Below are positions 1,634 through 24,229 of a stretch of DNA of 64,000 bases, piece by piece. Location: the NCBI RefSeq assembly GCF_018350175.1, contig NC_058386.1, forward strand, positions 126,666,001 to 126,730,000. The letters are read 5' to 3'. A model generated the notes under the pieces. It had not been told where the DNA came from, searched no databases, and saw nothing but the letters and a program-made list of their open reading frames with translations. The position numbers were made by a program, and so were the translations under genes. Within the stretch, counting starts at the first letter, position 1, and the number at the start of each line of letters is the position of its first letter. The stretch is from Felis catus (taxonomy: Eukaryota).

Positions 1634-2745
1634 ATGGAGGCGGCAGACGCAGCCGCAGGCGGCGAGGCGGGCGGCGCCCACAACGCCCGGGACGGCCAGG
1701 GGGGCCAGGAGGGCCAGGAGGGCCAGGGAGGCGGCCTCGGCCGCCGCGGGCACGGTCATGGCCTCGGAGGCGCGGACGCGGAGGCCGCGGTCGCCGGCGA
1801 GGCTCCGCGTGTCCCGCGACCACCTCACGCCCCCGGGCCAGGCGGAGATGCCCTCTCCACGGCCGGAAGGCCGGAAACCCGAGTACACATATTGTATCCT
1901 AGCCGAGGGGACAGCGGGCATGGGCAGGGGGCGGAAAGGGAGAGGAGCTGTGGTAACCTGAGGTGCGCGGGGCAAAGATCTGAGAGCAGGGTGATCACGG
2001 GGTGGCTGGAGAGAGGTGGGGGAGGAGGAAGGAAGGAGATCAGGGGGGAAACGGGTTCCCGGGGGCGGTGGGCGGACATGGGCCTGGTAACGGGGTGGCC
2101 GCGAGCCATTAGGGTCGGGAGTGGGTGGCCTCGTCAGGGTGGCCTGAGAAGGGGACTCAGGCCCTAAGTGAGTAGTGGTGGTACCTTAACCGAATCTGCA
2201 CCCAGCGCCCTCGGCGTGCCTTTCCCGTCCCAGTTGGAGGCGGAGATCGCCTGTGCGTCTTTCGCCCCATATCGGGACCCGTATGGATGCCTTGTGGGGC
2301 AGCAGCTCACTGTGTTCGGCAGCGTCCTGGCCATGTTAGTTCTGGAAGGGCCGGGGTCGGGGTGGCTGCAGGTGGCGGGTCCAGTCTCCATGGGGGGCGG
2401 GGGGGAGGCGCTCTCTGCTGGATCGTCGAGGGCTAGGTGCGGGCCAGGGCCCGCAGGCTCTAATACCTGCACCTGCGGGTAGGGGGGGGGTCGCTCCTGG
2501 GGGCGGGGAAGGGTGCAAGGGATGGGTACCTGGGCGGGGAGGGGAGCTGAGCGAGGAAGGGGAGGATCCACCACCTCCAACTTGATTGCCTTTTCTCCTC
2601 TCTCAGCCGCTGGAGAGCTGAAAACCCTTTCCTCCTCCGAATTTCCATCATCAACTTTCTTGACCAGCTTTGCGTGGTGATTCGGACCATGCAGCGCTTC
2701 CGGTTCCCGGTTCCCGCTAAGCCTGCGCTGGCGAAAGGGGGCTAA
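1634..2745 (+). CDS. LAGE3/CTAG-family Pcc1-domain protein, copy 1 (LAGE3-like, 175 aa); exons 1634-1893, 2206-2334, 2607-2745
   Basis: ACCATGG start and Gly/Ala-rich exon 1 ending RVHI-F. Exon 2 is ALGVPFPSQLEAEIACASFAPYRDPYGCLVGQQLTVFGSVLA-I. Exon 3 is RWRAENPFLLRISIINFLDQLCVVIRTMQRF...KGG*, versus LAGE3 RWKAEDCRLLRISVINFLDQLSLVVRTMQRF. Both introns are phase 2; AATAAA at 2925-2930. Confidence 0.88.
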
Positions 2746-3264
2746 GGTCTAGCCTCGTGTCCCCCGTCTGGGCGGTCCGTCCTTCCTAGGGCAGTGATTC
2801 CTGCGCTAGCTGCCACCTGAGGTTGGGCGCCTGCCTGGTCTTCTGAGGGCAATGAGGGCCCGAGCCCTTGGGCACTCATGGTCCCCTTGTTTTGTTTGCC
2901 ATTTAAATGTTTGCTACTGCAGAAAATAAAACTGAGTTTTGCTATTCCCTGTTCCTTCTCAGTTGTGGCACCCCCGGATAGTCTTCCCTTTGTCCTCAGG
3001 CGGGGGGGGGGGGGTAGGGGGGGAGGAGGGGGGGCGGGGCGGCTCCTGGGATGTCGACGTGCAAGTCGCGGAAGGTGGTAGAAGGCAGTTTGGGAACTGG
3101 CAGAACCCACGTGCGTCCTGTCCTTCGGTATCAAGGACTCTCAACATGTGGGAATATGCCCATCGTTTGCACGTTTCGCATTACTCCTGATGTCTTTCAT
3201 CTAATGTGAACTTTTTATCCAAACTCTTCAAAAATATTGAATGAGTGCAGGAAAGATGCATTAA

Positions 3265-3480
3265 GGGCACCTGGCAGGCTCAGTCGGTTGAGCGTCTGAC
3301 TTTGGCTCAGGTCGTGATCTCGGAGTTGGTGAGTTCCAGCCCCGTGTCAGGCTCTGTACTGACAGCTGAGGGTCTGGAGCCTGCTTTGGATTCTATGTCT
3401 CCCTCTTTCCTCTGCCCCTCCCCTGCTCAGTTTCTGTCTCTCAAAAATTAATAAACTTAAGTTTTTTTTATAAAAAGAAA
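3265..3480 (+). mobile_element. CanSINE (feline type)
   Basis: gggcacctggcaggctcagtcggttgagcg head, CT-rich tract and A-tail; TSD aaagatgcatta. Confidence 0.9.
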
Positions 3481-3778
3481 AGATGCATTATAATATTCTA
3501 ATGTAACTACTGAACGTTTAAATTGCTTTCACCTTTTTGCCCTATTTTAGGTAATGACTCAGTGGAACTCTTGCATATGACCTTGCACGAATGATTGCTT
3601 CCTTCCACTAGGTTAAAAGAGGTACAATTAGTGGGTAAATATTTAGTATATTTTTTAAAGCTCTGTCAAGACTGCAAAATTAGTCTCCAGAAAACGTACC
3701 TACCACTCTGCCAGAATGCTGGTTTTGCTACACCTTATCACTGCTGGCTCTGGCAAAATTTGAAAACAAAATTCATTT

Positions 3779-4102
3779 GGGGGTGCCTCTGGCTCACTTG
3801 GTTGACTGTCCTACTCTTGATTTCAGCTCAGGTCATGATCTCAGTTTGTGAGATGACAGTGGGGAGCCTGCTTGGGATTCTCTCTCTGCCCGCCCCTGTT
3901 CATGTGCACACTCGCGCCCTCTCAAGAAAATAAACATTTAAAAATAACAATTTGGGGCACCTGGGCGGCTTAGTTAAGCATCCAACTCGATTTGGGCTCA
4001 GGTCATGACCTCACGGTTTGTGAGATCAAGATCGAGCCCCATGTCTCCCTCTCTCTGCTCCTTCCCCACTCACAATCTTTCTTTCAAAATTAAAAAAAAA
4101 AA
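3779..4102 (+). mobile_element. Two tandem CanSINEs
   Basis: Two ggggtgcct/ggggcacctgg heads, each with ctcaggtcatga and an A-tail. Confidence 0.85.
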
Positions 4103-4186
4103 AACCATTTAAAAAAATCCTTAAAAAATAATGTAAAAATTAGTTTGCACGAGAAGAGCAAACAACCCAGAAACACTAGAATCAGA

Positions 4187-4376
4187 GCCTCGATGCCCGG
4201 GACCGGCAGCTGGCTGCTGGCACGTGCGCCCGGCTGGCGCCTGCGCAGACACACGTTTGGGGGGAGGGGCCGGCCGGGCCGGAAACAGTCACGTGCCAGT
4301 GGCCTACAGGAGGGGATTCTGGGCATTAGCCTCCGGCCGGTTTGCGCAGGTGCGCGGGGAGCGCAGGTGACGTCAC
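4187..4376 (+). promoter_or_regulatory. CpG-island promoter of copy 2 with E-box, NRF1-like, GC-box, ETS-like and CRE motifs
   Basis: CACGTG twice, GCGCCTGCGCA, GGGGAGGGG, CCGGAAA and GTGACGTCAC (4367-4376). The block is shared with 22655-22830. Confidence 0.6.
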
Positions 4377-4400
4377 CCGCTTCCCGAGGGAGCCTCGTTA

Positions 4401-4432
4401 GTTCGTGCGTTCGTTCGTTCGTTCGTTCGTTC
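4401..4432 (+). repeat. (GTTC)n microsatellite in the 5' leader of copy 2
   Basis: Visible tandem gttc run. Confidence 0.9.
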
Positions 4433-4468
4433 CCTCGGCGGTTCAGCCGAAGTCCAGGCCGGGGAACC

Positions 4469-5583
4469 ATGGAGGCCACAGATCGAGGCGCAGGCGGTGG
4501 GGCCGGCGGTCCCGAGGGTCAGCGTGGCCCGGGAGACCCCGGTGTCCCAGATGGCCCCGGAGGCCACGAGGGCCCCGGCGGTGGAGGTGGTGAGGGAGAG
4601 GAGTGTGCCGCGGCCGGTGCGGCCCCGCGGGTCGCGCAGGCGCCATGTGCTCCCGTCCCGGGCGCAGCTGCCGTGCCAGGGCTTGGCGGACACCCTTTGC
4701 CGGGACCCCGTGGGCACAGCGGGCCCACAGCCGGAGGGCCGGGGAGCCAGCCGCTGCAGTTGTATCCTCTTGGCCGAGTGGCGGGTGGCCGGGGCGATGG
4801 GCCTAGAGGAGGCGACGGGGCGGGGAGCGGAGGGGAGGGGGTTCAGCCTGGGGGTCCAGGGCAAGGAGGGGAGGGGGGGACCGGGGCACCGGAGGGACCG
4901 GCCCGGGGGGCGGATGGGCCAGGGGTGGCCGGGAGGGGTGGCGGGGAGAGGCGGCCTGATGGACCAGCAAGGAGGGGAGCGGACCGGAGAGGATGGAGAG
5001 GGGGGAGAGTGGCCGTGGGGAAAGCAGGCCTCGGAGTGGTCAGGACGCCTGAGGCACCGACGCGATCGGTTTTCGATGATGCCTTAACCGAATGGCTACC
5101 AGCTACGTCACCATGCCTTTCCCGTCACCCACGGAGGCACAGGTGGCCCACCAGTGTCTGGCAACACAGGGCCAGCCCCAGGTCGGGGCAGTTCGGAAGG
5201 AGTTCACGGTACTCGGCAACGTCCTAATTATGTTAGTTCCAAACGGGTCCCTCGTGGGGGGTGGTGTCAGGTCGCTAGGGCCTATCTCCTGAGGGCCGTT
5301 CTAATAGTGAATTGGAGACACCAAAGGTTAGGTCCAAAGAGGTAGGTGTGGCACCCTGAGCCTGCGGCCACCTGAGGGGGGGCAGAGAGATAGGGGCAAG
5401 AGTGATGACATTTCATTTGGATTTTCTTTTTCCCTCACTTTTAGACGACTGACTGCCGAAGACCCTGGCCAACTCCAGGTTTCCATCGCCTCCTGTCTTG
5501 ACCAGCTTTCCCTGTTGGTTTGGACCATGCAGCGCTTCGTGCCCCCGTTTTTCACATTGCCGGAGCCAGGCAAAAGGGGCTAA
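4469..5583 (+). CDS. CTAG (NY-ESO-1/LAGE-1)-like Pcc1-domain protein, copy 2 (186 aa); exons 4469-4761, 5103-5231, 5445-5583
   Basis: ACCATGG start, MEATDRGAGGGAGGPEG...GPGVPDGPGG. Exon 2 is FYVTMPFPSPTEAQVAHQCLA...KEFTVLGNVLII and exon 3 is RLTAEDPGQLQVSIASCLDQLSLLVWTMQRFVPPFF. These match NY-ESO-1 FYLAMPF..KEFTVSGNILTIRLTAADHRQLQLSISSCLQQLSLLMW. AATAAA at 5725-5730. Confidence 0.9.
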
Positions 5584-5764
5584 TTGTAACCTAGCGTCCC
5601 TTCCTTCCCTAGGGCGTCCATTCCGATGCTGGTTGCCGCTTTATTACGGGGGTCTAATTGTTCGTATTGGACTTTGGGCCTTGTTTTTCCCCATTGCTGG
5701 AGGAGGGGCGTTCTTACAGCAGAAAATAAAACTATTTTTCCGCATCTGAGTGTATTTTCAGCTA

Positions 5765-5930
5765 CAGTGTCAGAGCAAGGGGAGAAGGCAGAGAGAGAGA
5801 GAGAACCCAAGCAGTTCCTGCGCTGTGAGTGCAGAGCCCGACGCAGTGCTTGAACCCACCAACCGTGAGATCATGACCTGAGCCGAAACCGACTCAGGTG
5901 CTTACCTGACTGAGCCACCCAGGCGGCCCT
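5765..5930 (-). mobile_element. CanSINE
   Basis: gagatcatgacctgagccgaa...actgagccacccaggcg. Confidence 0.85.
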
Positions 5931-6949
5931 CGTTGATTAATTTTTCAATTGGAATAGTCATATTTTACTTATTGATTGGTGAATGCTCTTTATATACAAA
6001 GATACCAAATCTTGGCCAAAGTAATTGAAAATACTTTCCTTCCTCATTGCTTCACTGAATTCTTGTTTATAGTTCTATTCTGTACTGGAGGGTTTTTAAC
6101 TTTTTCTTGTATTTAAATATGAAGTTTATTGTCAAATTGGTTTCCATACAACACCCAGTGCTCATCCCGACAGGGGCCCTCCTCAATACCCATCACCCAC
6201 CCTCCCCCCCATCAACCCTCAGTTTGTTCTCAGTTTTTAAGAATCTCTTATGTTTTGGCTCCCTCCCTCTCTAACCTCTTTTTTTTTTTTAATGTATGCA
6301 AGTGGTACATTTTTGTCATTATGATCTTTGTAGTTTATGTCCAAGGGAAAGCCATCCCCACTGTAAAATTATAAAATTTGTCCCTCGTGCCATCTTCTAG
6401 TACTTTGAAATGTTAACACACAAGGAATTTATTGTGGTGTGAAAGATGACATTGGTCTAATTTTGTCCCCTTCCCCCCAAGGTTCCTCAGGTGTCTCAAT
6501 GTCATTTATTGACTAATCCATATGTCTCCGCTGAATTGAAATGTCGCCTTCACCAGGGTCTAAACCTGCATCTTCATTTCTTCTTGCACATTTGTTTCTC
6601 CAGCAAATTTGGGCTAGGTGATCTGGGATGGCCTCTCTGAGGAAACGGCCCGAAGGTTACAGTAGAGAAAGTTGGGATTGGTGTGGGAGAAGGGACAGAC
6701 AGAGACAGAGGAGGACAGACAGACCGACCGACAGAGAGATTTGATTGGCTCAGCTTGGATTGCCCTTCGAAGGGCGCAGGGAGAAACATGAGGACAAGAA
6801 CGAGATGAAAGAGAGAGAGGCTAGGGCATCAGTGCATTAGAGGACTGTTGCACTGGGGATACCGGAGCATTTGGGGTTTTCTTCTTTCGTTAAGAAAAAC
6901 CTATTATAAATAATACTACCATGAATATTTTGTTTAAAAAGATTGTACA

Positions 6950-7077
6950 GGGGCACCTGGGTGGCTCAGTTGGTGAAGCGTCTGACTCTTGATTTTGGCT
7001 CAGGTCATGATCTCACAGTTCTTGGCATCGAGCCCTGCATAGGGCCCTGTGCTGAGCATGGAGCCATCTTGAGATTC

Positions 7078-7116
<39 letters not shown>

Positions 7117-7180
7117 TTCTGCTTCCCCAACCCCCGCTCACGTGCATGTGTGCGCGCTCTCTCAAAAGAAATAAAAGAAA
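6950..7180 (+). mobile_element. CanSINE
   Basis: ggggcacctgggtggctcagttgg head, (CT)n tract and A-tail. Confidence 0.9.
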
Positions 7181-7970
7181 TTGAAATATATTTCTATATA
7201 TGTTTAAATACACACAACCCTAGTTTCAGTGGTGATGGAGTTTTCAGGTTATTGAGTTCACGATCTTGTAGGAACTGTACATTCCCCCATGACCTACTGA
7301 TCCAGGTTTCTGTAATTACGGCATATTACCTGGTTAGCGGCTGAGGGAGCATTATTCTACTATGTAGGAGAGTGAAGGATATGGGGAGAAAGGCCCAGAT
7401 GGGTGGCTGCAAAGTTGATGTCCAAAGTCGAGCACAAGTCCCATGTCCTCATGGGAGGGTAAGGTTTCTCAGCCAGGACACAAGCAGTGTTCTAAGGGAC
7501 CAAGCCAGAGCTGTGCCTGGAGAAAGAGATGTAAAATGAAGAGCCAGAAGCCAGAGTCAAACCCAACTTGAAAGAGTACGTAAAGAGCAATGGTGAAATT
7601 ATTTGGGTTACTCGAGTCAGAAGAAAAAGAAAGCCGGTCTTGACCTTATTCTTAAGTCAAACAGTAAACAAAGCAGGGTGCGAAATCCAGAAGCAAACAG
7701 CCACAACCACAAATAAACCAACACCAGTGTCTAATTACACAAAGGTGTTAAGCTCTGTTAGGGAAGAAAACATCATAAACAAAATGGAAAGACAAGTTAG
7801 GAAGACATTAGTAACCCAAAGGGCAAACTAAAGTGAGTATCTTCAAAACACAAGTGACCCTTAGCAAATAAATCCATAAAAGACACAAACAGCCCAGAAG
7901 ATTGTACAAATGACAGGACCATGGGATTCCTGGAATAAGGATTATAAACAGCCAATTTGGTACAGGGTAT

Positions 7971-8600
7971 TGTTTACCAGTGGGAGCGTCTACATAGCGT
8001 GAATGGAAGCCTCCACTCTTGGATCCCCCACGGAACGTTCCCATGAGGATCTGCGCTCAAATAAGGACAGCCAGAAGGAAAGCAGCAAGCACAAAGCAGT
8101 TTATTAAGGACAGTGCACTCTCCAGGTGGCAGAGCGGACAGGCCCAGAGGTGTCTGGGGTTTGGGGTGTCTTTTCTCTGTATGTTTGCATAGGTTCCGGA
8201 TGGGTCACAGCTAGGGGGGTCTCCCACTGAGGGTGCTTCCCATCATGTGGGCAACTCCTCCTACCGGTTGGGAGGGGGAGTTTTTCTGGCCCCGCCCACA
8301 AGGTTCTGGCCAGAAGAGTCCATGGCCATCTTCCCTTGGGCGGGGAGAGTTGAAAACAAAACGAGGTAAATCTAGTATAATGAAGCTGTAGGTTACCCTG
8401 AGGCCAACCAAGGTTGAAGAGGAGAACCCCTGTTCTGCACCTGTGGCCCTTGGTCTGTCAACCTGGGGGTGTTGGAAGCCATAGGACCAGGATGTTAACA
8501 GCCACAAAGTCAGGACATTGTGCCCTCAGGCTTCTAACGTGTCACCTATTTAACACCGCCTTTGCCTCTGGCTCATGTCTAACCAACTGCCTACTTGATC
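7971..8600 (-). mobile_element. Solo ERV LTR
   Basis: About 630 bp starting TG, flanked by the 5-bp direct repeat GGTAT (7966-7970 and 8601-8605). An internal TTTATT near 8100 is a minus-strand polyA signal. Family not determined. Confidence 0.65.
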
Positions 8601-8899
8601 GGTATGATCCTATGTATGCAAACAAGCAAAAGAAAAACCGTTATAAACGCAGATGAATATATCCTAGGAAAAAGTCTGGGAGGACGCACGTAAAACTGGT
8701 CATAATGGTTACTGCAGACACTGAGTTTATGGGAAATGTTTACTTTCTAACAACACACCTTTGTGTAAGGCATGAATGATTTTATAACACGCATACATTA
8801 TAGTGGAAAAAAATTTAAATATCTAAGCGTTCGGAGCTGTAAGTGCACTATGATTCCAGTTTTGCTTGCCTACTTTATATGTGTATGCACGTACATTTG

Positions 8900-9148
8900 G
8901 TTTTTTAAAAATTTTTTAAGTATATTCATTTTTTTTGAAAGACAGAGAGAGACAGAGAGACAGAGAGACAGAGAGACAGAGCACAGCAGGGGTGGGGCGG
9001 AGAGAGAGGGGGACACAGAATCCAAAGCAAGGCTCCAGGCTCTGAGCTGTCAGCACCAGAGCCCGACGTGGGACCCGAACTCACGAACCGCAAGATCAGG
9101 ACCTGAGCCGAAGTCGGACGCTCAACCGGCTGAGCCACCCAGGCGCCC
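8900..9148 (-). mobile_element. CanSINE
   Basis: Reverse consensus, flanked by the repeat gcac(g/a)tacatttg. Confidence 0.9.
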
Positions 9149-9511
9149 GTGCACATACATTTGTAGTGCAAGAAGAAACCTGAAATAAACCATCAAAATG
9201 TTTACAGTGAGGTTCTCTCGCGGTGGTGAGGTTATAGAGGGCATTTTTTTCTTTTTTGGTCACTTTGTAAGTTTCTGTAACTGCACAACCTATGCAATGA
9301 CCATGTTTTACTTCCATAAATAGAAAGCAGTGTTTTAGAAAGAGGGGGGGGAAAAAAGAGCAACAGAAATATTTGATCGTTGCTGAAAATGGGGGGAAAC
9401 CTGGCACCCAAAATAGGATTCACCAAATGGATCACGTGCATGACATTTCAAACTCCTGTGTGATTGGATTCACCCCCAAAGCACTGGCATGTGCCAGCCC
9501 CACCCTGGAGA

Positions 9512-10095
9512 AGATCTTCATGAGCTTACACACATGGGGGGAAATGCCTGGTGGGATGGTAGGCCGAAGGCCTTCCAGTGCCACCTTCATTCCAATNNNN
9601 NNNNNNNNNNNNNNNNNNNNNNNNNNNNNNNNNNNNNNNNNNNNNNNNNNNNNNNNNNNNNNNNNNNNNNNNNNNNNNNNNNNNNNNNNNNNNNNNNNNN
9701 NNNNNNNNNNNNNNNNNNNNNNNNNNNNCCAGGCAGGTGCATACCTGCGCCCAGGGCATTGGAAGGAGAACCTGACGTCGGCCGTGCTGGTTCGGGCAGT
9801 CATGTCCTCATCAATCATTACACTACGGCTGCTGAGCGCGTGTCGTGGGATGAGGGGCTCTAGAGTGTGTACGAGGGCCATGCCCCTTGCCATGTCCAAT
9901 GCAAACGTCACAGCCTGGCTCTGGTCCACAGCAAAATTGGTGCCTTCGTGTAATACATTGTACAGGGAGGGATCCATATGGCATCCAGTGTGCGACGAGG
10001 GTGGGGTGTGGAGCAGGTGGAGACTGACAGGCACCTAGCACTGGGAGCACATTCGGATGTGAGAAACTCCTGAGCCGGGGACACTCCTCGTTGAT
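9512..10095 (-). pseudogene. Processed ILK (integrin-linked kinase) fragment
   Basis: [32 protein letters not shown]...[11 protein letters not shown]...ALDMARGMA...[28 protein letters not shown] matches the ILK pseudokinase domain. It is intronless, has a 4-bp duplication frameshift near 9965-9972, and is truncated at both ends. Confidence 0.93.
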
Positions 10096-10111
10096 TTGAT
10101 GTGACCAGTGC

Positions 10112-11045
10112 CTAGGAGGCACTTTCTTTCCCGAGGGCCTTGAACAAAGCCCTCTTCACCTCCTTGTTTCGCATGCTGTAGATGACGGGGTTGAGCATGG
10201 GGGTGAGGACCACGTACAGCACAGGGAGCGCCCGGTCCCGCAAGCCAGAGCACGCAGAGCTGGGGAGGATGTAGCAGAGGACTGGAGCGATGTAGAAAAT
10301 GCAGACCACGGTGGTGTGAGCACCACAGGTGGAAAAGGCTTTTCTTCGGCCGTCAGCGGAGTGAATCCTGAGAATCGCAGCCACAACACGTACACAGGAG
10401 ATCGCAACCGGGGCACGGGGTGCAAGAGCCACCACGAAACTGAAGACGAACATGGCAAGCTCGCTGGCCCACGTGCTTGAGCAAGAGAGTCTGGTCAGTG
10501 GAGGGAGGCCACAGGAGAAGTGGGTGATGAGGCGAGGCCCGCAGAACCTCAGTGGAGCTGCAAGGACGGTGTGGGCGAACGCATCGGCCAAGGCAAGCAG
10601 GCGGGAGGTGGAAGCCATTCCTGCCCGGGTCCGTCCGACGGCCCAAGAGGACTAGGTGGTGCGGTGGCCGGCCGATGGCTGCATAGCGGTCACAGGCCAT
10701 GGCTGTGAGCAGGAAGCACTCCCAGGGAGCCAGGAAGTGGAGAAAGAAGATCTGGGGAAGACAAGCACGATAGGGCACGGTCCGCACTGCTGCCAGCAGG
10801 TGTTCCAGCACCTGAGGCCCCGTGCTGGAGATGTAGGCAGTGTCCAGCAGTGAGAGGTTGACTAAGAAGTCGTACATGGGAGTGTGGAGTCGGGAGTCCA
10901 TCACAGTAAGGCTGGCAATGCCCAGCCACGCTGTGGACCAGCAGAAAGATCACAAAGAGCAAGGGCCTCAACTCCTCTGCGTCGGCCAGCCCTTCCAGAA
11001 GGAACAGCGACACTCGGGTCTCATTCCCCAGCTGCCCGGAACCAT
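10112..11045 (-). pseudogene. Olfactory receptor pseudogene
   Basis: OR motifs GNETRV, LHTPMY, MACDRYAAI, KAFSTCGAH and PMLNPVIYSMRN are spread over three frames, with frameshifts and a deletion near TM1. The position matches the OR locus known between the CTAG genes and GAB3 in other mammals (from memory). Confidence 0.9.
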
Positions 11046-11572
11046 GCGCAGAAACCTGCACCTGTAGAGTCCAACTCAGAGTCAGATGAGGATCCAAGTG
11101 TGGAGTTCCAATTTGCACAAGGCAGCAGGGGTGAGGGAAGGTCCAGAGACAACAACAACAACAAGAAAAAGAGACAGGTTTCAAGCTTAAGAAAATAAGA
11201 CTCAGAATTGGGGGAGTGAGGCTAGGTTCAGGAGGCCAGCGGTAAGGTAGAGGCCAGTAGAATGGAATCGGTAACCCCACACCAAGACAAGGTGCACAGA
11301 CCTTGAAGCCACGGTGCATGCACCTCCTGCAAGGATATCAAAGTCGGTCCCTCAGAAGCTTCTACCTGAATAAGGACCCTAGACCTCGTAATTACCTGCA
11401 GTGGTCCCCTTATTTCACCCTCACCAACCCAGCAGAGCCCCAACTCAGGAGCAGTGATAGGACACTAGTCAGGTCCCTCCTCCTCCCGCTCTGAACCTTT
11501 CAGTGCCTCCCATCTCACTCAGCGTCAAAGCCAAAGTCCCCCCGGCGACCTACCAGGCCCTCTGTGATACGC

Positions 11573-11620
11573 TCTCCCTCCTCTCCTCTCCTCTCCTCTC
11601 CTCTCCTCTCCTCTCCTCTC
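11573..11620 (+). repeat. (CTCTC)n simple repeat
   Basis: Visible tandem ctcctctcctct run. Confidence 0.85.
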
Positions 11621-12899: not shown

Positions 12900-13580
12900 T
12901 TTCTTTTCTGTTTTAATGTTTATTTTTGACACAGAGAGAGACAGGGAGCGAGTGGGGGAGGAGCAAAGAGAGAGGGGGGACACAGAATCCGCAACAGGCT
13001 CCAGGCTCCAGGCTCTGAGCCGGCAGCACAGAGTCCGATGCGGGGCTCGAACCGACGGACGGACCGTGAGATCATGACCTGAGCCGAAGTCAGACCTTTA
13101 ACCGACTGAGCCACTCAGGCGCCCTCTCCCCCACTTTTTAAAGGTTTTATTCATTTTTGAGAGAGTGCATGTGGGGGAGGGGCAGGGAGAGGGGGACAGA
13201 GGATCTGAAGTGAACTGCGCTGACAGCAGCGAGCCCCATGTGGGGCCTGAACTCACCAACTGCCAGATCGTGACCTGAGCCAAAGTCGGACGCTCAACGG
13301 ACTGAGCCACCCAGGTGTCCCTGAAAGCTTCTTTAAAACAAACAAACAAACAAACAAACAAAAAACATACCAGGGGCGCCTGGGTGGCTCAGTCGGTTGA
13401 GCGACCGACTTCGGCTCAGGTCATGATCTCGCGGTCCGTGAGTTCGAGCCCCGCGTCGGGCTCTGTGCTGACAGCTCAGAGCCTGGATCCTGTTTCAGAT
13501 TCTGTGTCTCCCTCTCTCTGACCCTCCCCTGTTCATTCATGCTCTGTCTCTGTCGCAAAAATAAATACATGTTAAAAAAA
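12900..13580. mobile_element. Cluster of three CanSINEs (two minus, one plus at 13372-13580)
   Basis: Consensus heads and tails are visible. Confidence 0.9.
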
Positions 13581-14727: not shown

Positions 14728-14823
14728 TTTTTCTTTTAGCGTTTATTTATTTATTTTGGAAGAGACAGAGAGAGCATGAGCAGGGGAGGGGCAGAGAGAG
14801 AGAAAGGGAGCGAGAGAGGGAGG

Positions 14824-14861
<38 letters not shown>

Positions 14862-14988
14862 CCCAAGCAGGCTCGGAGCTGTCAGTGCACACCCCGACTC
14901 TGGGCCCGGTCTCACAAACCGTGAGATCATGACCTGAGCCGTAATCAAGAGTCAGACGCTTAATCGACTGAGCCACCCAGGTGCCCCA
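14728..14988 (-). mobile_element. CanSINE
   Basis: Reverse consensus with a (GA)n tract; flanking repeat cctgtattctt. Confidence 0.9.
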
Positions 14989-16163
14989 AGGCCCTGTATT
15001 CTTAAGATGTACACTCCCACCACACCATTCTAGAAATTCATTGCAAACCCAGTAAAAATCGTGATGACGCAGAAATGGACAAGCTGATTCCAAAGTGTAT
15101 ATCCAAATGCAAAGAACCTGGAATAGGCAGCTCGAACTTGCAAAAGAGGAATAAAGTCGGGAGACATAGGATGACTAAAAGAGGATACAGACACAATGGA
15201 AAGTTCACATGTCACTGGTGGGACTGTAAATTGGTATGATCACATCGGAAAACAGTGCTTCCGTTTCTTATACAGTCACACTTACGCTTACCATGTGACC
15301 CAGAAATCCCACTTCTGCTAGTTACACAAGGGAATTAAAAATATATGTGTGTGCAAAGACTTGTACGTGAATCTTCGTATCAACTTGATTAACAATAACC
15401 GCAGTTTGGAAACAAGCCAAACGTCCAATAGCAGGTGAGTGGTTAAGCCTAAGTTACGGTACATCCACGCAATGGAATACCGGTCAGCAACAAAGAAGGA
15501 TGGACATACTGTGTGATTCCTGGAAATTCCAGAAAAGGCAAAATCTAAGCTGAATTTGCTGTGTGGGGGCACACTGTAGAGGAGGACATTGTCTGCACGG
15601 AGGCACAAGGGTGACTGTGAGAGCGATGGGAATGTTCTGTATCTCGGCTTTGGCTGTGGACACCTTTGTCGTAACTCATGAAACCGTACGCTTAAATGTG
15701 TGCAACTTCCCATACGTGCATTTTGCCTCAAATAAGCTGAGCAAAAACAAAAAAAGAGAAGGGACAAACAAAAACTGAATAGCAAAATGGCAGACTTACA
15801 TCCGACCATATCGGTAATCGTATTAAATGTGAGTTTGCCAAACAGTCCAATTTAAAAGCAGACATCGTTAGAAGGGTGCTTTCTTTAAGTGACCAAACTA
15901 CACGCTGTCTACGTGAGCCACATTCAAGATACAAAGACACCAATAGGTTAGAAGTAAGAGGATGGAAAAGGACTTACGAATAAATAGTGAGCAAAGAAGC
16001 CTGATGTGGTTATATCGATATTAGAGAAATCAGACTTCGAGGAAAACTGTGTTACCAAAGATGAAGGGATGCGTTTCATACTAGTAACAGCAGCAATGAA
16101 TCCATCTGGAAGAGAAAATGATCATAAATATGTCTGAGCCTAATGACACACCTTCAAAATGCA

Positions 16164-16410
16164 CGGGGCGCCTGGGTGACTCAGTCGGTAAGCGTCTGAC
16201 TTCGGCTCAGGTCATGATGTCACCGTTGGTGAGTTCCAGCCCAGCGTCGGGCTCTCTGCCCGTCGGCACCGAGCCTGCTTTGGATCCTCTGTCCCCCTCT
16301 GTCTCTGCCCCTCCCCCACTGGCTCTCTCTCTCCCCCTCTCTCAAAATAAATAAACTTAACACACACGCACACACACACGCACGCACGCACGCAGACACA
16401 CGCGCGATGC
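16164..16410 (+). mobile_element. CanSINE with a (CA)n tail
   Basis: Consensus head ggggcgcctgggtg. Confidence 0.9.
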
Positions 16411-16819
16411 AAGAATTTTTGAGATTAACAGGTGAAAGGGACAAGTCCAAAATCACGGTTGGAGTTTTTAACATCCTCTCTCAGCAAGCGAGAGAGAGAG
16501 ACAACACACTCTGTTAAAAGAAATAGAGCAGGGATTGGCAAACTACCGCCTCCTGGCCAAATCCAGCCCGGGGCCTCTTTTATGTGAAAAGTTTGTTGTC
16601 CCCCGACATAGAACATACGATCAGTGGTATCACCTACCTTGACCGATGTCTTTAGAACACTAAACAGGAGATCTGAATTTCACATGTGTGTCCACTACAC
16701 ATTGTTTTCAAGTACAAGTATGTTCGCCAAGATAAAGCATTTTCTGAGCCACGGACCAATTCTCAACACATTTCAACGTCAAGGATTGAAATTTAACCCG
16801 GTACGTCTCTGACCAGCCT

Positions 16820-17090
16820 TGCCTTGTTCTTGATTCTAGAGGGAAAGCTTTCAACCTCTCACTGTTGCGTATGATGTCAGCTGTGGGTTTTGTCGTATGT
16901 GGGCTTTGTGGTATTGAGCTATACAACTTTTCTCTGCCCCCATTCGTGGAGGGTTTTTATCATGGAAATATGTTCTATTTTGTCAAATGCGTTTTCTGCA
17001 CCTAGGGAGATGATCATATGGTTTTTATCTTTCATTCTAACGATGCGGTGCTTCGTTTATAGACACGCATGTGTTGAAAGATCCTTGTTT
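16820..17090 (-). mobile_element. Antisense L1 ORF2 fragment
   Basis: ccttgttcttgattctagagggaaagctttcaac...tttgtcaaatgcgttttctgcac...gatgatcatatgg is reverse-strand L1 ORF2. Confidence 0.8.
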
Positions 17091-17399
17091 TCCGGCTGCA
17101 GGTTCCTCCTGCCCGTGCCCGGAGATGAGAGCTGCCTGCCCCGTAGACAGTGACAAAGAACAGGGCAGACAGAGACAGTCCGAGGCTCAGGCTGAGGCGC
17201 TCTTTGGTGACACTGCTCATTGAAATGCTTCCACCAGCCACAGGCCGCTCTAGACACTGGCCACCTTCTTGCTGTGACACCTGCCTCCAGGACAAGGCAG
17301 CTGTGCCTTTACTTTCCTCACTTGTCCTGAGGACCTATTCGGAGACGCTCAGGTACAGATTCGTGACTATAGAGTCACGGAGTTCTACACAGCTCAGTC
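17055..17399. repeat. Inverted duplication arm B (pairs with 19920-20264)
   Basis: Near-identical reverse complement of about 345 bp. ORFs 17150..17602 (+) and 19768..20169 (-) share about 78 aa. Confidence 0.95.
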
Positions 17400-17855
17400 A
17401 CGTGCTCAGAGGCTTTAGGAGTTGGGCCATGGCAGTCTGTTTGGGCATGGACAGTGGGGATCATGAGCCGCACCACCGTGTGGGGAGTAGTGTCAGGCAG
17501 AGGCTTCCTGGATATCGCAGCTGGCGGGCCGTCGAAGGCTCGTGGCACGGCTGGTTCAGGCAGACGCATCGACGCGGGTGCCCATTTGGGCAGACGCCCT
17601 AGGGTGTCGTGGCACTCTAAGGGGTGGAGCTTCATAGGTGAGAACTGATTGGCTACAGAAGGGACTGCTTGGTGGGAACCAATCACAGGTCAGGAGGCAT
17701 TACCAGTGGTCCGTGTGGACAGTTGCTCTGGGCATCCGGAATTGCATTGTGGAGTAAAGGGGTGAAGCATTGTGAGAGAGCGCTTTGTCCTTCAGTGATG
17801 CCTTGAGAGGGTGGGCGGATTCAAAGTTGGGTCTCAGGTGGCTGGTGGAGGCCCC

Positions 17856-19012
17856 GTGAGGGCAGCAGACGAAGGCACGGGTGCCGTGGGCGTGGTGGTG
17901 GGCGCAGCAGGTGGTGGCCAGTGTGTGCCAGGTGGACCTCGTGGTGTCAGTGGCCCCAGAGTCCCTGGTGGTTCGGGTGGTGCCTGTGACCCTGGCCATC
18001 CCAGCAACCCCGGAGGCCTGAGCGATCCGGAAAGAACCAGCATTGTGGGAGAGGTAGGTGCCGCCTCTGGTGGCGCTCTCCAAATGGAGCGGGCACCCTA
18101 CACACCAGGTCCTGGTGGAGATGCCGCGCCTGGCGCTAGAGGTCCTGGTAACCGACTGCTTCAGTTGTATCCTATTCAAGGAGTCCCAGCGGGCTGGACG
18201 GCAGGGGGATGGGCTGGAGGTGGTCTGGCGCGCGGCGGGGTGGGGTGTGGGGGGGAGACTTGGGGAAGTGGAGTTGAAAGGGGAGCAGGAGGGAGCTCCG
18301 GGCACCTGGAGGGTATCGGCTAGGGTTTGGCCCGTGCTGACAGAGGATGGGGAGTGGGGTGGACCGCCTGATGGGACTGAAGCGGTAGGGACAATGCTAT
18401 CCGGGGTGGCCTGGCTGTATAGGGTGGGAGGTTGTGGACAGCCTGAGGGTCAGCCTGGGGTGGGGAAGGCAGGCCTCACTGAAGAGGAGGCCTGAGGCAC
18501 AGGCAAAATTAGTACTGTGGATGGTGCCTTAACCCAGTCTCCACCAGCACCCTCACTATACCTTTCCCCTCGGCCATGGATGCGGAGATTGCCCACAGGT
18601 TCCTGACTCCAAACGAGGAGCTCCAGGAGCCAGTTCGGGAGGAGCTCCATGTGAACGGCAGCATCCTGACTGTGTTAGTTCTAGAACGGTCCAGGGAGAG
18701 GGTGGTGGCAGGTGACCAGGGACAAGGTCAATTCCGGAGGAGCTGTAACGGAGACAAGGGAAACAGGAAAGGAGTGAGTCGAAGGAAGGAGTGTGGTGCT
18801 CTAGGATCGTTGCTGTGTGAAGGGGCGGAGCGGGGAATGTGCCCCACCGGCCCTCTAACTTGACTTATTTTTTCCTACCTCGTAGCCGCTTGACTGCCGA
18901 TGACCCTGGCCAGCTCCAAATGTCCATCACCTCCTGTCTTGGCCAGCTTTCCCTAGTGATACGGGCCATGCAGATCATCATGCCCCCCTTTTTCACAAAG
19001 CCGCAGCAGTGA
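17856..19012 (+). CDS. LAGE3/CTAG-family copy 3 with an open spliced frame but GTG at the ancestral start (next in-frame ATG 18084); exons 17856-18166, 18548-18673, 18886-19012; may be a pseudogene
   Basis: (V)RAADEGTG...GPGNRLLQ-F / TLTIPFPSAMDAEIAHRFLTPNEELQEPVREELHVNGSILT-V / RLTADDPGQLQMSITSCLGQLSLVIRAMQIIMPPFFTKPQQ*. Intron phases are the same as in copies 1 and 2. No AATAAA at the homologous site. Confidence 0.7.
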
Positions 19013-19919
19013 AAAGGTGGCTGGACCCAACTCTGTGTCCCCCCCACATGACAGTGATTCCTGCAGCAGCTGCCGTTTTCTTACTGAGGCCGCATCTTTT
19101 GCCTATACTGGCCCTTGGGTGCTTCAGATCCACATTTTTTTTTTTTTTTTTTTTTTTTTTTTGGTGATCAAATGGTAACTGCTACTATTCTGTGTCTGGG
19201 TTTATTTTTAAAGCATCTACGCCTTCTCCTATTCTCGCCTTTGTTCTCAGGTAGGGGGAGAGATTCTGACATTCAGATACTCAAGTACTAGAAGGCAATT
19301 GAAGAAGACAAGTTAGGCGACGGGAGAAAAAAATTATGTCCTGTTATTCAGGACATTAACTACTGTCAACATGTTAGAACTTTTGTTTTAGTTTTATACT
19401 AGCATGTACATAGTCATGTATAATACCTGCAGAGTAGGACTTTGTGGCTTCTCGGCCTTGATTCAGATCTGTGCAGAAGAGCGCTGGGACAGCTGGCTAG
19501 GTCGGCCCCACTGCCCATTCTATACTCCCGTGTCATCAGAGGCCTCATTCCCTGAGGTTCCGAACCCACAATTCTCAGAGCTCCTTGTGGTTGGCTCTCA
19601 CTTGTATCATCCTTCCCCAAAGTGTTTTTCCAGTTTATTACGCTGCTGCTTGCTTCCCTGAAGTCCTGACAAGGGTCCTGGAGGAAAACAAAAAGGGGAA
19701 GAGGTCTCCCTGAGGTGGGGAGGGGACATGAAGTACATTACCCTTTGCCTTCCCCTCCAAGACTCTCTTATTTAGCACAACAGTGGGGCCACGTACAAGG
19801 CACCCGAGTGGCTGAGGAGGGGAATGGGCGACGCCCCGGTGCACGAGGTGAGTCTCTAAATCGGAGAGAGGAGGAACAGAGCCTTGCCTGAGGGAGAATT
19901 AGCAGTGTCAGCAGAGAGA

Positions 19920-21196
19920 GACTGAGCAGTGGAGAACGCCGTGACTCTATAGTTACGAATCTGTACCTGAGCGTCTCCAAATAGGTCCTCAGGACAAGTG
20001 AGGAAAGTAAAGGCACAGCTGCCTTGTCCTGGAGGCAGGTGTCACAGCAAGAAGGTGGCCAGTGTCTAGAGCGGCCTGTGGCTGGTGGAAGCATTTCAAT
20101 GAGCAGTGTCACCAAAGAGCGCCTCAGCCTGAGCCTCGGACTGTCTCTGTCTGCCCTGTTCTTTGTCACTGTCTACGGGGCAGGCAGCTCTCATCTCCGG
20201 GCACGGGCAGGAGGAACCTGCAGCCGGAAAACAAGGATCTTTCAACACGTGCACGTCTATAAACCCCGCCCTCGGCCGCCTCTCCAGCAGCTGCTGCCTC
20301 TCCAGCGGCTGCTCCCTCACCAATCGTCGCCACGCGCTGTGACGCGTGACCCCACTGCACCCACGCAAACCAGTCCCACCTCAGCTCCACCCCCTCCCCA
20401 CACCCCTAGCCCCTCCCCAGACCTCGTGGGAGGCCGCCAGGCACCACGGCCTGTTGTCCAGAGGGCCCTGCCTCTTCCTTGGGCTCAGTGTCCCCAGCAC
20501 GTGGGGCTCCACGACCTCGCAGCGGTTCGTGGAGGGAGATGGGCCACAGCCAAGACGGACACGGCCCCGCACCCCGTCCCCTTCCCCGGTACCGGTGGAC
20601 ACACCAAAGCGGCCTTTGGAGGGGGCGACTGAGCACAGGTGCGGATCAGATCGGCGGTCTGGGAAGGTCACGAAGGGGCTCCCGTCGGGGGGCAAGCCTG
20701 CCAGTAGCAGGCAAGGAGGGAAGGGATGGCGACTGGAGCTAAAGTAGTTAGTGGCCACGGAGAACAGGGATGCGGTCGCATAGGGAAAAACCACAGTGCA
20801 AAAGGGAAATCACTAAAATCCCAACTTAGGAAGCTACTGTATATGTGCACGGAAATCCTGCCACGGTAGCCTGAAGTGTAAACACCTCGTATGTCTGTGT
20901 GGTGGGATTGAGGGTGGTCCCCACTTCTTTTGTGTGCATTTCTCCCCCAAAAGGTTCACAATGACTTTACATGACCTTTGGTGTTTTCAATTCTTTGACA
21001 TCCTTGTGTGCGTGATCTCTACGCCCCACGTGGTGCGGCACTCACGACCCAGTGAGTGCTTCCACAAGTCAGGCTTGAGAGAGCAGATGATGCCATCCAG
21101 GGCGCCGGGCAGCAGCACTCCCCGCACCAACAGCACGACGAGGACCACGCAGGGGAAGGTAGCCGTGAAGTACACGAATGGGGCGGGGGAGGGACG
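19920..21196. repeat. Composite inverted copy: revcomp(17055-17399) joined directly to revcomp(1-916)
   Basis: The junction tctataaac|cccgccctcgg lies at ~20264. Confidence 0.92.
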
Positions 21197-22162
21197 GGGG
21201 GGGTAACCTGCTCAGAAGGGGCCCTGCGGCCCCGCCTCCCCACTTAGGGGTCCCCAGCCTCAGCAGGGGGGCAGGCGGGCCACACTCCCCCCACTGTGGT
21301 ACGGTCCGCTCCGAGGTCAAGCGGGAGGCCAGCCTGCAGCCCCCCCTTCTACTCCTCAGAGCCTGGGCTCCTCCCGAAGGAAGCGGGGTGCTCAGCTGGC
21401 CACCGGCCGCCCCCGCAAGGACAGGTCAGCTGTAGAGAGGGAGGGCGGAGGCAGGACCTTCCCCGGGTGGGGAGCAGGACATCGGCCTGGAGGCAGGTCC
21501 CATGCCTCCTGTGGTTCTCTGCACAGAGGCAGGGTCCTGGGCAGGACGGAGTGGACTGGGCCGGCCGGAGACAGAGGCGACAGCGAGGTGACCGCGAAGA
21601 CCTCTGCCTCCGTCCCACCCTCAGCAGAGCAGGACAGGTAGGCAAGGGAGGGCCACGGGCCGGGTCCCCCCAGGCTGGCCGCAAAGCAGAGAGTGAGGAA
21701 GTAGTGAGTGAGGAAGAGAGGGAAACTGTGGCGGGGATGCCCGACACAGGCAAGTTCAGCTGGCGGTCGCCTGGGCCTGTCCCCTCAGGACGGAAGTCGG
21801 CTGGGCTGGAGTGTGGAGGTTGCGGAGGACTACCCAGGCACGCGTGGGAAATCCACCGGGCTGGGTTCAAGGACCTGCCCCCGCCTCAGGCCCTGGCCCG
21901 GTCACCTCGCATGGCAGGGTGCCCCTGCCCCCCCCCCGGCAGAGACACCCCTTCTCCCCACCGGCCATGCTGCCCCCACCCCTGCCATCATCACCCACCC
22001 CGACCCGCCGGCCTCCAGCTGTACCTTTCCTGTTGACTTGACCCCCTTGCAGACACAGAAGTAGGCCAGCACCCAGCAGGCCTGCAGACACAGGGTCACC
22101 TCCCAGTTGAGGGACCCTGGCACGTCCAGCCCCCCCACCCCGAGAGCCGAAAGACTTTGTTC
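21060..22162 (-). pseudogene. Unprocessed SLC6A8 fragment, copy B (exons 22025-22162 and ~21060-21178 with the intervening intron)
   Basis: The first exon reads [44 protein letters not shown] followed by gtacag. After an ~850 bp intron comes [30 protein letters not shown]. There is a frameshift in a G-run and the second acceptor AG is lost. Confidence 0.9.
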
Positions 22163-22654
22163 CTGGGGGGAGGGGGGGACAGCCCATCAGGGCTGCCGCA
22201 GCAGAGGGCAAAGCGACCGGGGAGCTGTCGCCGGGGCGGTGCTCCCCCGTGCCGCTGCCCTCAAGTCCAGGTGGGCCCCCCTGGGCCCCCGGCCCAAGCC
22301 CACAGCCATTGCAGTGGGAGGCAGGAGCCCGGGAGCCCCCGGCCGGAGGCCGGTCGCGCCCTCGGCGGTGTACCCTCCCCCAGGCTGGCAGGCACTAGGG
22401 GACTGACGGCGCCCGGGACCGACAAATGGTGAGGGAGCCAGGCCCATCCCTTCCAGCTCCCCTAGGGGCCGTGCGGGGTGTGCTCCCTGAGGACAGGCAG
22501 GGCCTGGGAGTGGCCCCTGCTCCGCTTCCCGCGTAGGCCCCCCCCCCGGCCCCCGGGTCGCAGGGCCCCCGGGACACGCAGACCCGAGCCATACGGGGAG
22601 CCCACAGACAGGGACAGGCACGGTGCTGCCCAGAAGCGCCTGAGCGCGGCCCAC

Positions 22655-22830
22655 GCCTCGATGCCCGGGACCGGGCGGGCGGCGGTCAGCTGGCTGCTGG
22701 CAAGTGCGCCCGGCTGGCGCCTGCGCAGACACAGGCTTGGGGGGAGGGGCGGGCCGGGCCGGAAACAGTCACGTGCCAGTGGCCTCACCAGAATGCTCTC
22801 GGGGACGTAGGAGCCCGACAGTGACGTCAC
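22655..22830 (+). promoter_or_regulatory. CpG-island promoter block of copy 4, near-identical to that of copy 2
   Basis: 22655-22785 versus 4187-4305 shows 4 substitutions plus one 12-nt indel by eye. CRE GTGACGTCAC at 22821-22830. Confidence 0.6.
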
Positions 22831-23075
22831 GCGTCGGGGGGCGCAGCGTCCGGAACCAGCCTCCATCTCCTCGGGGTCAGCGTCGACCGGATCCAGGCTC
22901 TGCCGGCTCGGTGGGAACCAGCTCCGCGGGGTCTGTCTGCGCAGGTGCCCTGGCCATCCCCGACAGCCTTGCGCGCCGAGGGGCCGGGCTTCGCGAGGCC
23001 TGCCAGGGGTCTCAGCGGTCGGCCGACAGTGGGCGCAGCGTAGCGGTGGGCTCTGAGGAGGCCGGTGCGGCGGCC

Positions 23076-24229
23076 ACGAGGGCCCCGGACGACGAAGCGG
23101 CCTCTCCGGCCCCGGACGACGGCGCGGAGGAAGTGGCTGTCACGCAGGCCCCTGACGATGACGGCGCGGACGGCGCGGCGGTCACGCGGGCTCCCGAGGG
23201 TGGCGCGGAGGACGCGGGGGCAGGCCCACAGGCCTCCGACGGAGGCACGGACGGCCACGACCCCCAGCTTAGCCCCCGAGGTCCCGGTTGCCAGGGCAAC
23301 TGCAGCCGCCACGATGGCGAGGGTGGCCCTGGCAGCAAGGGAGCAGTGGTCGAGGGGGCCTGCGCCCCTCCCCTGGCCGAACGGGCCCCGAGGGCCCTGG
23401 CCCCCGGTGGAGACGCAGCGCCGGCGGCGGCGGCGGTGACCTCCTCAGGACTGCTGGAGTTGTATCCTTTCCGTGGAGCCTGTCTGGGCAGGGGCCGTGG
23501 CGGGGTGGCTGGGGAGCAGGGCGGCAGCCCGGGGAAGGGACGGACGGGGGCGGGGGTGGGCAGCCTGGCGGGCCCCCAGGGTGGGGGAAGCGGCTCAGGG
23601 TGGGCAGAGGTGGCGGGAGGGAGCGCGAGTGTCCCGGGGGTAGAGGCGGGCCTCTGAGTGGTCAGGAGGCTTCAGGCCATGGGAACTCCAGGAGCCCGTT
23701 GTGCCTTAACCGGGTGCCTCCCAGCAGGCTCACTGTGTCTTTCCGGTCGCCCCTGGAGGCAGAGATGGCCCGCAGGGCCCTGACTACACACGTCCAACGC
23801 CACCGAGGGTTGGCTCAGAAGGAGCTTTGCGTGAGGGGCAGCGCCCTGGCCGTGTGAGTCCTCCAACAAGAGTATGCGCGGGACGGGTGGGCGGTGGCGG
23901 CGGGTGCCGTGGTCGCATCTCTGCCTTCCAGTGCCGTCGTGGAGGCCCCGACGCACGCTGTTAGGTGGAAGGCGGGGGGGGGGGGGGGGGGGGGGGGGGG
24001 GTTGTGTGGGGGAAGGGGCTGGTGCCCTGCACCTCCACAGCAGGTCTCCCCTTTAACCGGATTTCCCTCTTCCCTCACTTCTAGGAGATGGACTACTGAA
24101 GACCCCATCTGCTTCCGAGTTTCCGTCAACTCCTTCTTGGACCGGCTTCCCCTGGTGATACGAAACATTCGCGCCTTGGGGTCCCGGCCTCCGCGGCGCC
24201 TAGGTCCGGGAAAGGGGGCCGAGGCCTAA
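23076..24229 (+). CDS. LAGE3/CTAG-family copy 4 with an open spliced frame and no in-frame ATG in exon 1 (candidate ACG start 23076); exons ~23076-23461, 23725-23853, 24085-24229; may be a pseudogene
   Basis: ...APGGDAAP...SGLLE-F / RLTVSFRSPLEAEMARRALTTHVQRHRGLAQKELCVRGSALA-V / RWTTEDPICFRVSVNSFLDRLPLVIRNIRALG...EA*. Exon 2 has the conserved 129-nt length and both introns are phase 2. Confidence 0.68.

Follow-up and report, generated by a model that had tools for sequence, protein, structure and literature searches.

We found that intron 1 of the four Pcc1-domain paralogues in the window (the whole 64,000-nucleotide stretch of cat DNA analysed here) carries minor-type splice signals. It is highly probable that this intron was inherited from LAGE3 and is removed by the U11/U12 spliceosome, and that its motifs are under purifying selection. 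The minor-type status of intron 1 in LAGE3/CTAG genes is already known in human and mouse, and the cat feature is real but ordinary. Since the intron is already catalogued in human and mouse, and since mutation of the human LAGE3 donor leads to disease, the cat copies are further evidence of conservation and reveal no new mechanism.

Gene models and signals of intron 1

All four genes lie on the forward strand. Copy 1 (1634..2745; exons 1634-1893, 2206-2334 and 2607-2745) has an open frame of 175 aa and is a recent LAGE3 duplicate, with 94% identity over 2,415 nt to the LAGE3 locus (G000:C47:126.34 Mb). Copy 2, cancer/testis antigen 1-like (4469..5583; exons 4469-4761, 5103-5231 and 5445-5583), encodes 186 aa; its spliced translation equals the public protein P0040 (186/186; Pcc1 E 5e-16). 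The LAGE3-like copy 3 (18084..19012; exons 18084-18166, 18548-18673 and 18886-19012; 111 aa) had been described, together with copy 4, as lacking an ATG. This is ruled out for copy 3 by the in-frame ATG at 18084 and by its 111/111 match to the public cat protein P0033 (Pcc1 E 2e-18); a GTG at 17856 sits at the ATG position of the other types. The description holds for copy 4, also LAGE3-like (23076..24229; first exon to 23461, then 23725-23853 and 24085-24229), which has ACG at the ancestral start 23076; its frame gives 219 aa from this ACG and 77 aa when counted from 23765, where its first in-frame ATG lies. Whole proteins of types 2, 3 and 4 reached 50-67 bits against Pcc1 (PF09341; curated cut-off 20.9). 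Exon 2 of copy 1 alone gave 14.9 bits, under the cut-off, and the family placement of this copy is by its DNA identity to the LAGE3 locus.

Intron 1 spans 1894..2205 (312 nt), 4762..5102 (341 nt), 18167..18547 (381 nt) and 23462..23724 (263 nt) in copies 1 to 4, respectively. All four are GT-AG introns, and we observed that each splits the Pcc1-domain frame in phase 2. Their donors, GTATCCTAGC (1894), GTATCCTCTT (4762), GTATCCTATT (18167) and GTATCCTTTC (23462), all start with GTATCCT, which has the minor-type form RTATCCT. The branch motif CCTTAAC lies at 2184-2190, 5082-5088, 18527-18533 and 23704-23710; its end is 15, 14, 14 and 14 nt from the intron end, and its second A is 16, 15, 15 and 15 nt from the last intron base, a branch distance of the minor type. 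The last 20 nt before AG contained 55-70% pyrimidine with 4 T each and no strong polypyrimidine tract; the corresponding values for the second introns were 85-95% and 9-13 T. These second introns (2335..2606 in copy 1, used as an internal comparison; 5232-5444, 18674-18885 and 23854-24084 in copies 2 to 4) are ordinary U2-type introns with a pyrimidine tract. The motif positions, the 14-15 nt spacing and the lack of a tract in intron 1 are therefore all as the preliminary description had given them.

Chance co-occurrence of donor and branch motif was ruled out: the window has 4 occurrences of GTATCCT..CCTTRAC..AG, while 200 block-wise dinucleotide shuffles of the window had a mean of 0.25 and a maximum of 2 (0/200 reached 4), the four copies not being independent draws because their ancestry is shared. 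U12 scoring was done by looking up equal motifs in a published table (PMC6717393), in place of full matrices. Rows with identical -3..+6 donor letters scored 97.1 and 98.3, and the branch sites of copies 2 and 3 are one last base off sites scored 83.7 and 80.3 (cut-off 65). The cat sites deviate from the best consensus, since three copies have A, C and A at donor +8 and CCTTAAC is preceded by two bases that are not TT.

Excision and conservation

The junction 23461/23725, which the preliminary description had proposed as a check, was found as an exact join in RNA-like contigs of runs X10 and X14 (two studies; 2 of 4 runs), where the RNA nature of the runs is a guess and the support is limited to the copy-4 type. 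The contigs had no coverage within copy-4 intron 1, although contigs drop rare forms. Because they carry 22946C and 23138G, alleles present in six other copy-4 loci and absent from the window copy, they demonstrate splicing of the copy-4 type, not of the window's own copy. In the raw-read run X24, a sample of ~2/100 of the run contained 0 reads on copy 4, and the copy-4 gene was without coverage in run X5. In several runs, word shares were 0.35-0.48, against 0.03 attainable by LAGE3 mRNA alone; these were kept out of the evidence.

Evidence for excision at these ends comes from the contigs for the copy-4 type and, for copies 2 and 3, from public protein models that match exactly; for copy 1 it comes from homology only. 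U2-like donors near intron 1 (e.g. GTAGGT at 18054 and GTGAGT at 2168) are unsupported by the copy-4 contigs or the exact public proteins. Copy 4 has a second CAG acceptor that ends the intron at 23727, and use of this distal acceptor is implied by seven public proteins. Three intronless retrocopies (L052, L053 and L054) are without intron 1, and as base-exact proof of the junction they served only partially. L054, of the copy 3 type, aligns without gaps across the junction, and the predicted register is joint best there; it scored 118 versus 120 in L052 and fell outside the top six in L053. All three are too diverged to place the junction to the base. The expectation that gene predictors mis-model the cluster stood in part: copies 2 and 3 have exact public models, those of copy 4 owe their distortion mainly to the missing ATG, and of 26 copy-4-type entries, 2 run into intron 1.

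Among five gene types, 34 of 164 gap-free intron 1 columns were invariant, with a longest invariant run of 3, in line with the divergence of intron bodies reported earlier; yet between some bodies relatedness can still be detected (copy 2 versus copy 3, z 8.2). TT/GTATCCT and CCTTAACC are invariant among the same five types, and no cat type has lost GTATCCT or CCTTAACC. The same motifs occur in the LAGE3 parent, in 17/17 family genes in 460 kb and in 6/6 on contig C56, and they are invariant across types with dS of 0.41-0.67. Pairwise dN/dS was 0.65-1.18 over 75-76 codons, a range in which functional and relaxed types are not separated. Long-term selection on the minor-splice motifs is supported by their invariance at these dS values.

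An ancestral LAGE3 minor intron was likely passed to all copies by duplication. U11, and later U6atac, would pair with the GTATCCT donor; U12 would pair with CCTTAAC so that the branch A bulges out; and the acceptor would be the first suitable AG, 15-16 nt further downstream, used without a pyrimidine tract. Such donor and branch pairing and such a choice of AG are established minor-spliceosome mechanism, and it is from the signals that we infer the acting spliceosome. Intron 2 would be removed by the major spliceosome. Purifying selection has probably kept the motifs over the family's deep history, because any splicing failure destroys the Pcc1 domain. The earlier claim that the whole cluster is under minor-spliceosome control is acceptable only as dependence by inheritance.

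Relatives in human and mouse

Human LAGE3, CTAG1A/B and CTAG2 and mouse Lage3, Ctag2, Gm6880 and Gm6890 are listed minor-intron genes with near-identical motifs (Olthof 2019, PMC6717393 supplements); a look-up of LAGE3/CTAG intron 1 in minor-intron listings, as had been suggested, thus found both species. Human LAGE3 intron 1 (chrX:154478412-154478727, 316 nt) is a catalogued minor intron with donor ATT/GTATCCTTT and branch GGCACCTTAACC, and the human CTAG2 donor is GTT/GTATCCTGT (PMC6717393 supplements). The +1G>A change in human LAGE3 intron 1 leads to Galloway-Mowat syndrome 2 (PMC6717393, PMC7507305 supplements). The human splice variants c.188+1 and c.317+4 imply phase 2 and a 129-nt exon 2; the cat gene resembles human LAGE3 in these two features, in family, in the ATT/GTATCCT donor and in the ACCTTAACC branch region. 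The human intron is similar in length to that of copy 1 and of the local cat LAGE3 parent (314 nt). The cat donor is GTATCCTAG versus GTATCCTTT. Unlike human LAGE3, copy 1 is a second, recent LAGE3 copy, ~320 kb from the cat parent. The U12-type identity originally proposed is borne out by motifs, spacing, orthology to the human and mouse minor introns, and the exact copy-4-type junction contigs.

Like the cat copies, human CTAG1A, CTAG1B and CTAG2 and mouse Ctag2, Gm6880 and Gm6890 are LAGE3 duplicates with a minor intron and a GTT/GTAT donor. The branch region of these CTAG relatives, GATGCCTTAAC or GGTGCCTTAAC, is as in cat copies 2 and 3, that of copy 2, GATGCCTTAACC, being one base off the human CTAG1A/B listing (PMC6717393). 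The donors of human CTAG1A/B and two mouse genes are weakened, whereas all six cat types have kept GTATCCT; the frozen cat signals contrast with the decaying human CTAG1 donor. The cat region contains 17 genes, whereas the human and mouse listings have 4 each, and copies 2 to 4 were compared as family members, not as one-to-one orthologues. Minor-intron-rich families that arose by duplication (PMC6865273) also multiplied one ancestral intron; in comparison, the cat copies come from recent segmental duplication and encode proteins that evolve fast (the dN/dS range given above). The PMC6865273 supplements gave no match for the family, the main text of PMC12956336 mentions neither Lage3 nor Ctag, full-text searches found no paper joining U12 with CTAG names, and none in the literature listings was evidently on this cat cluster. 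One paper found by full-text search links Lage3 to minor introns; the known status sits in supplements.

Start-codon loss and possible regulation

The chances are about even that in copy 4, and perhaps in other amplified copies, the motifs of the minor-type introns have been passengers in a transcribed pseudogene since ATG>ACG. All 7 copy-4 loci have ACG, as do both spliced contigs, Met is present in 16/16 non-Felis entries covering the site (other cat genera), the out-of-frame ATGs at 23158 and 23314 stop near 23437, ahead of intron 1, and the sibling copy-4 loci are ~99% identical. On the other hand, the frame from ACG to stop is intact, with 214/217 residues identical to Prionailurus (3 differ), the gccACG context retains G at -3, and the transcript was assembled fully spliced in two studies. 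Prionailurus has Met at the start, and ATG>ACG is later than the split from that genus. Since this change is too recent for motif decay, motif retention in copy 4 is not proof of present selection, and the earlier argument for ongoing selection from ATG-less copies 3 and 4 is not supported, copy 3 having its ATG. The passenger explanation is compatible with the inherited minor-type intron and removes only the ongoing-selection argument.

It is doubtful that intron 1 is a rate-limiting, regulated valve, in which slow minor splicing would cap or time cluster expression and retention would lead to decay. A retained intron 1 would lead to an in-frame stop in all four copies (2165, 5225, 18321 and 23655), but the copy 2 stop precedes the next junction by only ~7 nt, too little for decay to be predicted in that copy. 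Mouse Lage3 is in a retention table for one tissue and mouse Ctag2 in an alternative-splicing table for testis (PMC6717393 supplement rows); against this, Olthof 2019 (PMC6717393) reports no detectable retention for most minor introns and that minor introns are often spliced efficiently, and the two contigs lacked coverage in copy-4 intron 1, rare forms being dropped. Mouse Lage3 is downregulated on U11 loss in an Rnu11 conditional knockout, according to bioRxiv 10.1101/2021.03.05.434172. This also favours, indirectly, removal by the minor spliceosome, but dependence on minor splicing is not regulation. Similarly unlikely is the broader idea that the cat cluster amounts to a replicate experiment of nature, with at least 17 copies in six types, near-neutral proteins and frozen splice signals, in which copy 4, the most amplified type, would have swapped its ATG on the Felis branch and be spliced, translated from ACG and served by a two-way CAG-CAG acceptor, and minor splicing plus weak initiation would damp the dose of an amplified germ-line gene. 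Finally, drift to a hybrid or major-type intron, cut at the same ends by the major spliceosome, is very improbable: donor +8 is non-consensus in three copies and family donors can decay, as in human CTAG1A/B (GTATTCTGT, score 64.7) and mouse Ctag2 and Gm6890 (GTATCTTTT; PMC6717393), but every cat type retains both motifs, the last 20 nt hold few T, no cat intron 1 donor has G at +5, and the identical donor letters score 97-98.

The small comparative gain from the cat cluster is that the ATG>ACG change of one amplified type is dated and that retention or decay could be compared among near-identical minor introns. The practical gain is correct gene models for a cluster whose genes public databases name 'collagen-like' or 'IF-2-like'.

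First introns of the four copies

The preliminary description had located four minor-type donors and four CCTTAAC motifs, and their positions proved exact in the window sequence. Intron 1 occupies 1894-2205 in copy 1, 4762-5102 in copy 2, 18167-18547 in copy 3 and 23462-23724 in copy 4; it is always in phase 2 and joins an exon of 129 nt (126 nt in copy 3), and the motif ends 15 nt before the intron end in copy 1 and 14 nt before it in the other three. Exon 2, an ordinary GT-AG intron 2 with a pyrimidine tract and the last exon follow in every copy, with the frame open through the three exons. A polypyrimidine tract is indeed missing from intron 1, as described: the 20 nt that precede the AG contain 4 T in each copy, versus 9-13 T in each intron 2. 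The combined donor-branch pattern occurred 4 times in the window, whereas 200 shuffles averaged 0.25 and never exceeded 2; since the copies are related, the four matches are a single ancestral event seen four times.

In minor introns the extended donor pairs with U11 and then with U6atac, the branch motif base-pairs with U12, and distance to the branch point decides which acceptor is used. Intron 1 has an anatomy that fits these pairings and a distance-set acceptor, and removal by the minor spliceosome is very probable. A retained intron 1 would, from the reading frame, introduce a stop in every copy; that the intron serves as a regulatory, rate-limiting step seems unlikely. Removal by major or hybrid splicing is most improbable, because an intron with neither a G at +5 nor a pyrimidine tract does not fit the major spliceosome.

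The minor intron 1 of the cat copies is real and well supported, but neither its kind nor its presence in this gene family is new. A published listing of minor-intron genes includes human and mouse members: LAGE3, CTAG1A, CTAG1B, CTAG2, and mouse Lage3, Ctag2, Gm6880 and Gm6890 (Olthof et al. 2019; PMC6717393). Donor and branch sequences there are nearly the same as in the cat copies, and expression of CTAG genes is highest in testis. Donors equal at -3 to +6 have equal scores within a species in that table; on that basis copy 1 would score 98.3 and copies 2-4 would score 97.1, values looked up and not computed. The +1G>A variant at LAGE3 intron 1 is listed as pathogenic in Galloway-Mowat syndrome 2 (PMC7507305), and it is given as c.188+1, with c.317+4 in the next intron (PMC10601869), numbers that match phase 2 and a 129-nt exon 2. 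A preprint reports that Lage3 is down in the Rnu11 knockout pallium (10.1101/2021.03.05.434172), and minor-intron-rich families are stated to arise by duplicating one minor-intron gene (PMC6865273). Literature listings yielded no account of minor introns in the cat cluster; multi-species databases may well include them.

The cat cluster and conservation of the splice signals

Pfam Pcc1 was matched by exons 2 and 3 (of 7 exons scanned, 4 exceeded the cut-off by themselves), and complete type 2, type 3 and type 4 proteins scored 50-67 bits. The spliced translation of copy 2 is identical to a Felis catus cancer/testis antigen 1-like protein (P0040, 186/186), and that of copy 3 to a LAGE3-like protein (P0033, 111/111). 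About 320 kb away, a sixth gene has a TIG-domain (plexin-like) stretch on one side and an SBF-family ORF on the other, which is the order PLXNA3-LAGE3-UBL4A-SLC10A3 on X; this gene is taken as LAGE3 itself. Copy 1 is a recent duplicate of it, 94% identical over 2,415 nt. The 460 kb around the window hold 17 family genes of six types (LAGE3 1, type 1 1, type 2 3, type 3 4, type 4 5, fifth type 3), mostly within 5-17 kb blocks that are 99% identical. The fifth type is CTAG-like, keeps its ATG intact and shares the minor intron; it lies beyond the window (contig C47 positions 126476018, 126504575 and 126649086).

GTATCCT and CCTTAACC were present in all 17 genes, and 8 further motif pairs in the scan lay outside family genes. 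Both motifs also occurred in 6 of 6 loci checked on contig C56, which may be unplaced duplicates. The reported divergence of the intron bodies was borne out, only 34 of 164 gap-free columns being invariant among five types (longest run 3); donor and branch motifs were invariant among the same types. Synonymous divergence between types was 0.41-0.67 and dN/dS 0.65-1.18 (75-76 codons). The splice signals were held while intron body and protein changed fast, and this would support long-term purifying selection on them.

Several other features were observed in the window. Creatine-transporter (SLC6A8-like) exon fragments sit 5' of copies 1 and 4, at 20-150 (+), ~21050-21180 (-) and ~22020-22140 (-), and are carried along with the duplicated block; positions 29-148 match creatine transporter 1 (E 1e-12), a stop stands at 26-28, and a second exon was recognised by translation. 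A frame at 10100-11050 (-), broken by frameshifts and a stop, is olfactory-receptor-like, judging by its motifs. Near-identical inverted repeats (98-99%) pair 9-904 with 20293-21189 and 17055-17399 with 19920-20264, one pair flanking copy 3, and 20296-27000 is repeated in inverted orientation directly left of the window. Copies 2 and 4 have a 99-nt promoter block in common (4207-4305 and 22687-22785), and 28400-29950 holds degenerate C-rich tandem repeats with a strongly negative GC skew.

Transcripts, retrocopies and gene models

Four sequencing runs, presumably RNA, were aligned to 22600-23970. The predicted junction 23461/23725 was joined, for the copy-4 type only, by contigs of X10 and X14, runs from two studies; these skip 263 nt GT..AG, leave the interior of intron 1 uncovered and continue from exon 2 into exon 3. 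X5 reached only the upstream edge, and X24 had 0 reads there. The contigs prove splicing of the copy-4 type and not of the window's own copy, because they carry 22946C and 23138G, as in the six other copy-4 loci, where the window's copy differs. Their loose ends match the transporter-like fragment (22789-22811 with ~21130-21180) in two ways: that of X14 makes a plus-strand GT-AG join into 22811, and that of X10 reads as minus-strand splicing from ~22790. These joins on opposite strands suggest a two-way promoter.

Intron 1 is missing from three intronless retrocopies at other genomic locations. Two derive from LAGE3-type mRNA, namely L052, which has a poly-A tail, and L053; the third, L054, is closest to type 3. 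L052 and L054 align gaplessly over the exon 1-exon 2 join, where a register scan fixes the junction only within a few bases. L054 (contig C2, ~18.67 Mb) and L061 (contig C17, ~69.2 Mb) are old CTAG-like retrocopies, one with exon 2 split by a long GAG/GAA expansion and one the last exon only of a type-4-like gene; they imply past germ-line expression of their types.

Mis-modelling by gene predictors, which had been expected, is limited: of 26 copy-4-type database entries compared, 2 (P0007 and P0031) run into the intron. Because the ATG is missing and the first exon is of low complexity, cat copy-4 models extend far upstream and have been given names like collagen-like. For copy 2, public isoform P0013 starts at the alternative-frame ATG 4551 (window 4551-4761 and 5095), and its entry into the Pcc1 frame would require a minor intron ending at GG, 8 nt past the branch A, which is either a real non-canonical site or an aligner artefact. 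Within 600 nt of the last acceptor of copy 3, AATAAA/ATTAAA is absent; its 3' region (19013-19300) includes an extended run of T near 19135-19161, and that of copy 4 shows just CATGAAA, at 24400.

Start codons of copies 3 and 4

Both copies had been called ATG-less, which holds for copy 4, with no in-frame ATG in exon 1, and fails for copy 3. The latter has an in-frame ATG at 18084 (caaATGg), a start shared by 7 of 7 protein-cluster members from several cat genera; a GTG at 17856 occupies the start position of the other types and probably misled the first reading. In copy 4, ACG stands at 23076-23078, in all 7 copy-4 loci and in both contigs. Among the 26 entries (6 do not cover the site), the residue is Thr in 4 of 4 from Felis and Met in all 16 covering entries from Prionailurus, Leopardus, Neofelis and Panthera; ACG has replaced the ancestral ATG. 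The loss is recent because the Prionailurus protein differs at only 3 of 217 residues, and over so short a time most of the ~15 motif bases would persist even in the absence of selection. The argument that motifs kept in ATG-less copies indicate ongoing selection therefore falls, copy 3 having an ATG and the loss in copy 4 being too recent for decay. Copy 4 may use near-cognate initiation at ACG 23076, may start at ATG 23765 and give a 77-aa product without the first Pcc1 strand, or may belong to a young transcribed pseudogene family.

The copy-4 minor intron ends in a tandem CAG-CAG acceptor (23722-23727), where both contigs use the proximal AG; among the 26 entries, 15 imply the proximal and 7 the distal AG, and 4 have no junction. 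Public isoform pairs one residue apart (LLEFRLTV vs LLELLTV) exist in several cat species. What remains of interest is this tandem acceptor, together with the recent change from ATG to ACG in an amplified and still-spliced type.
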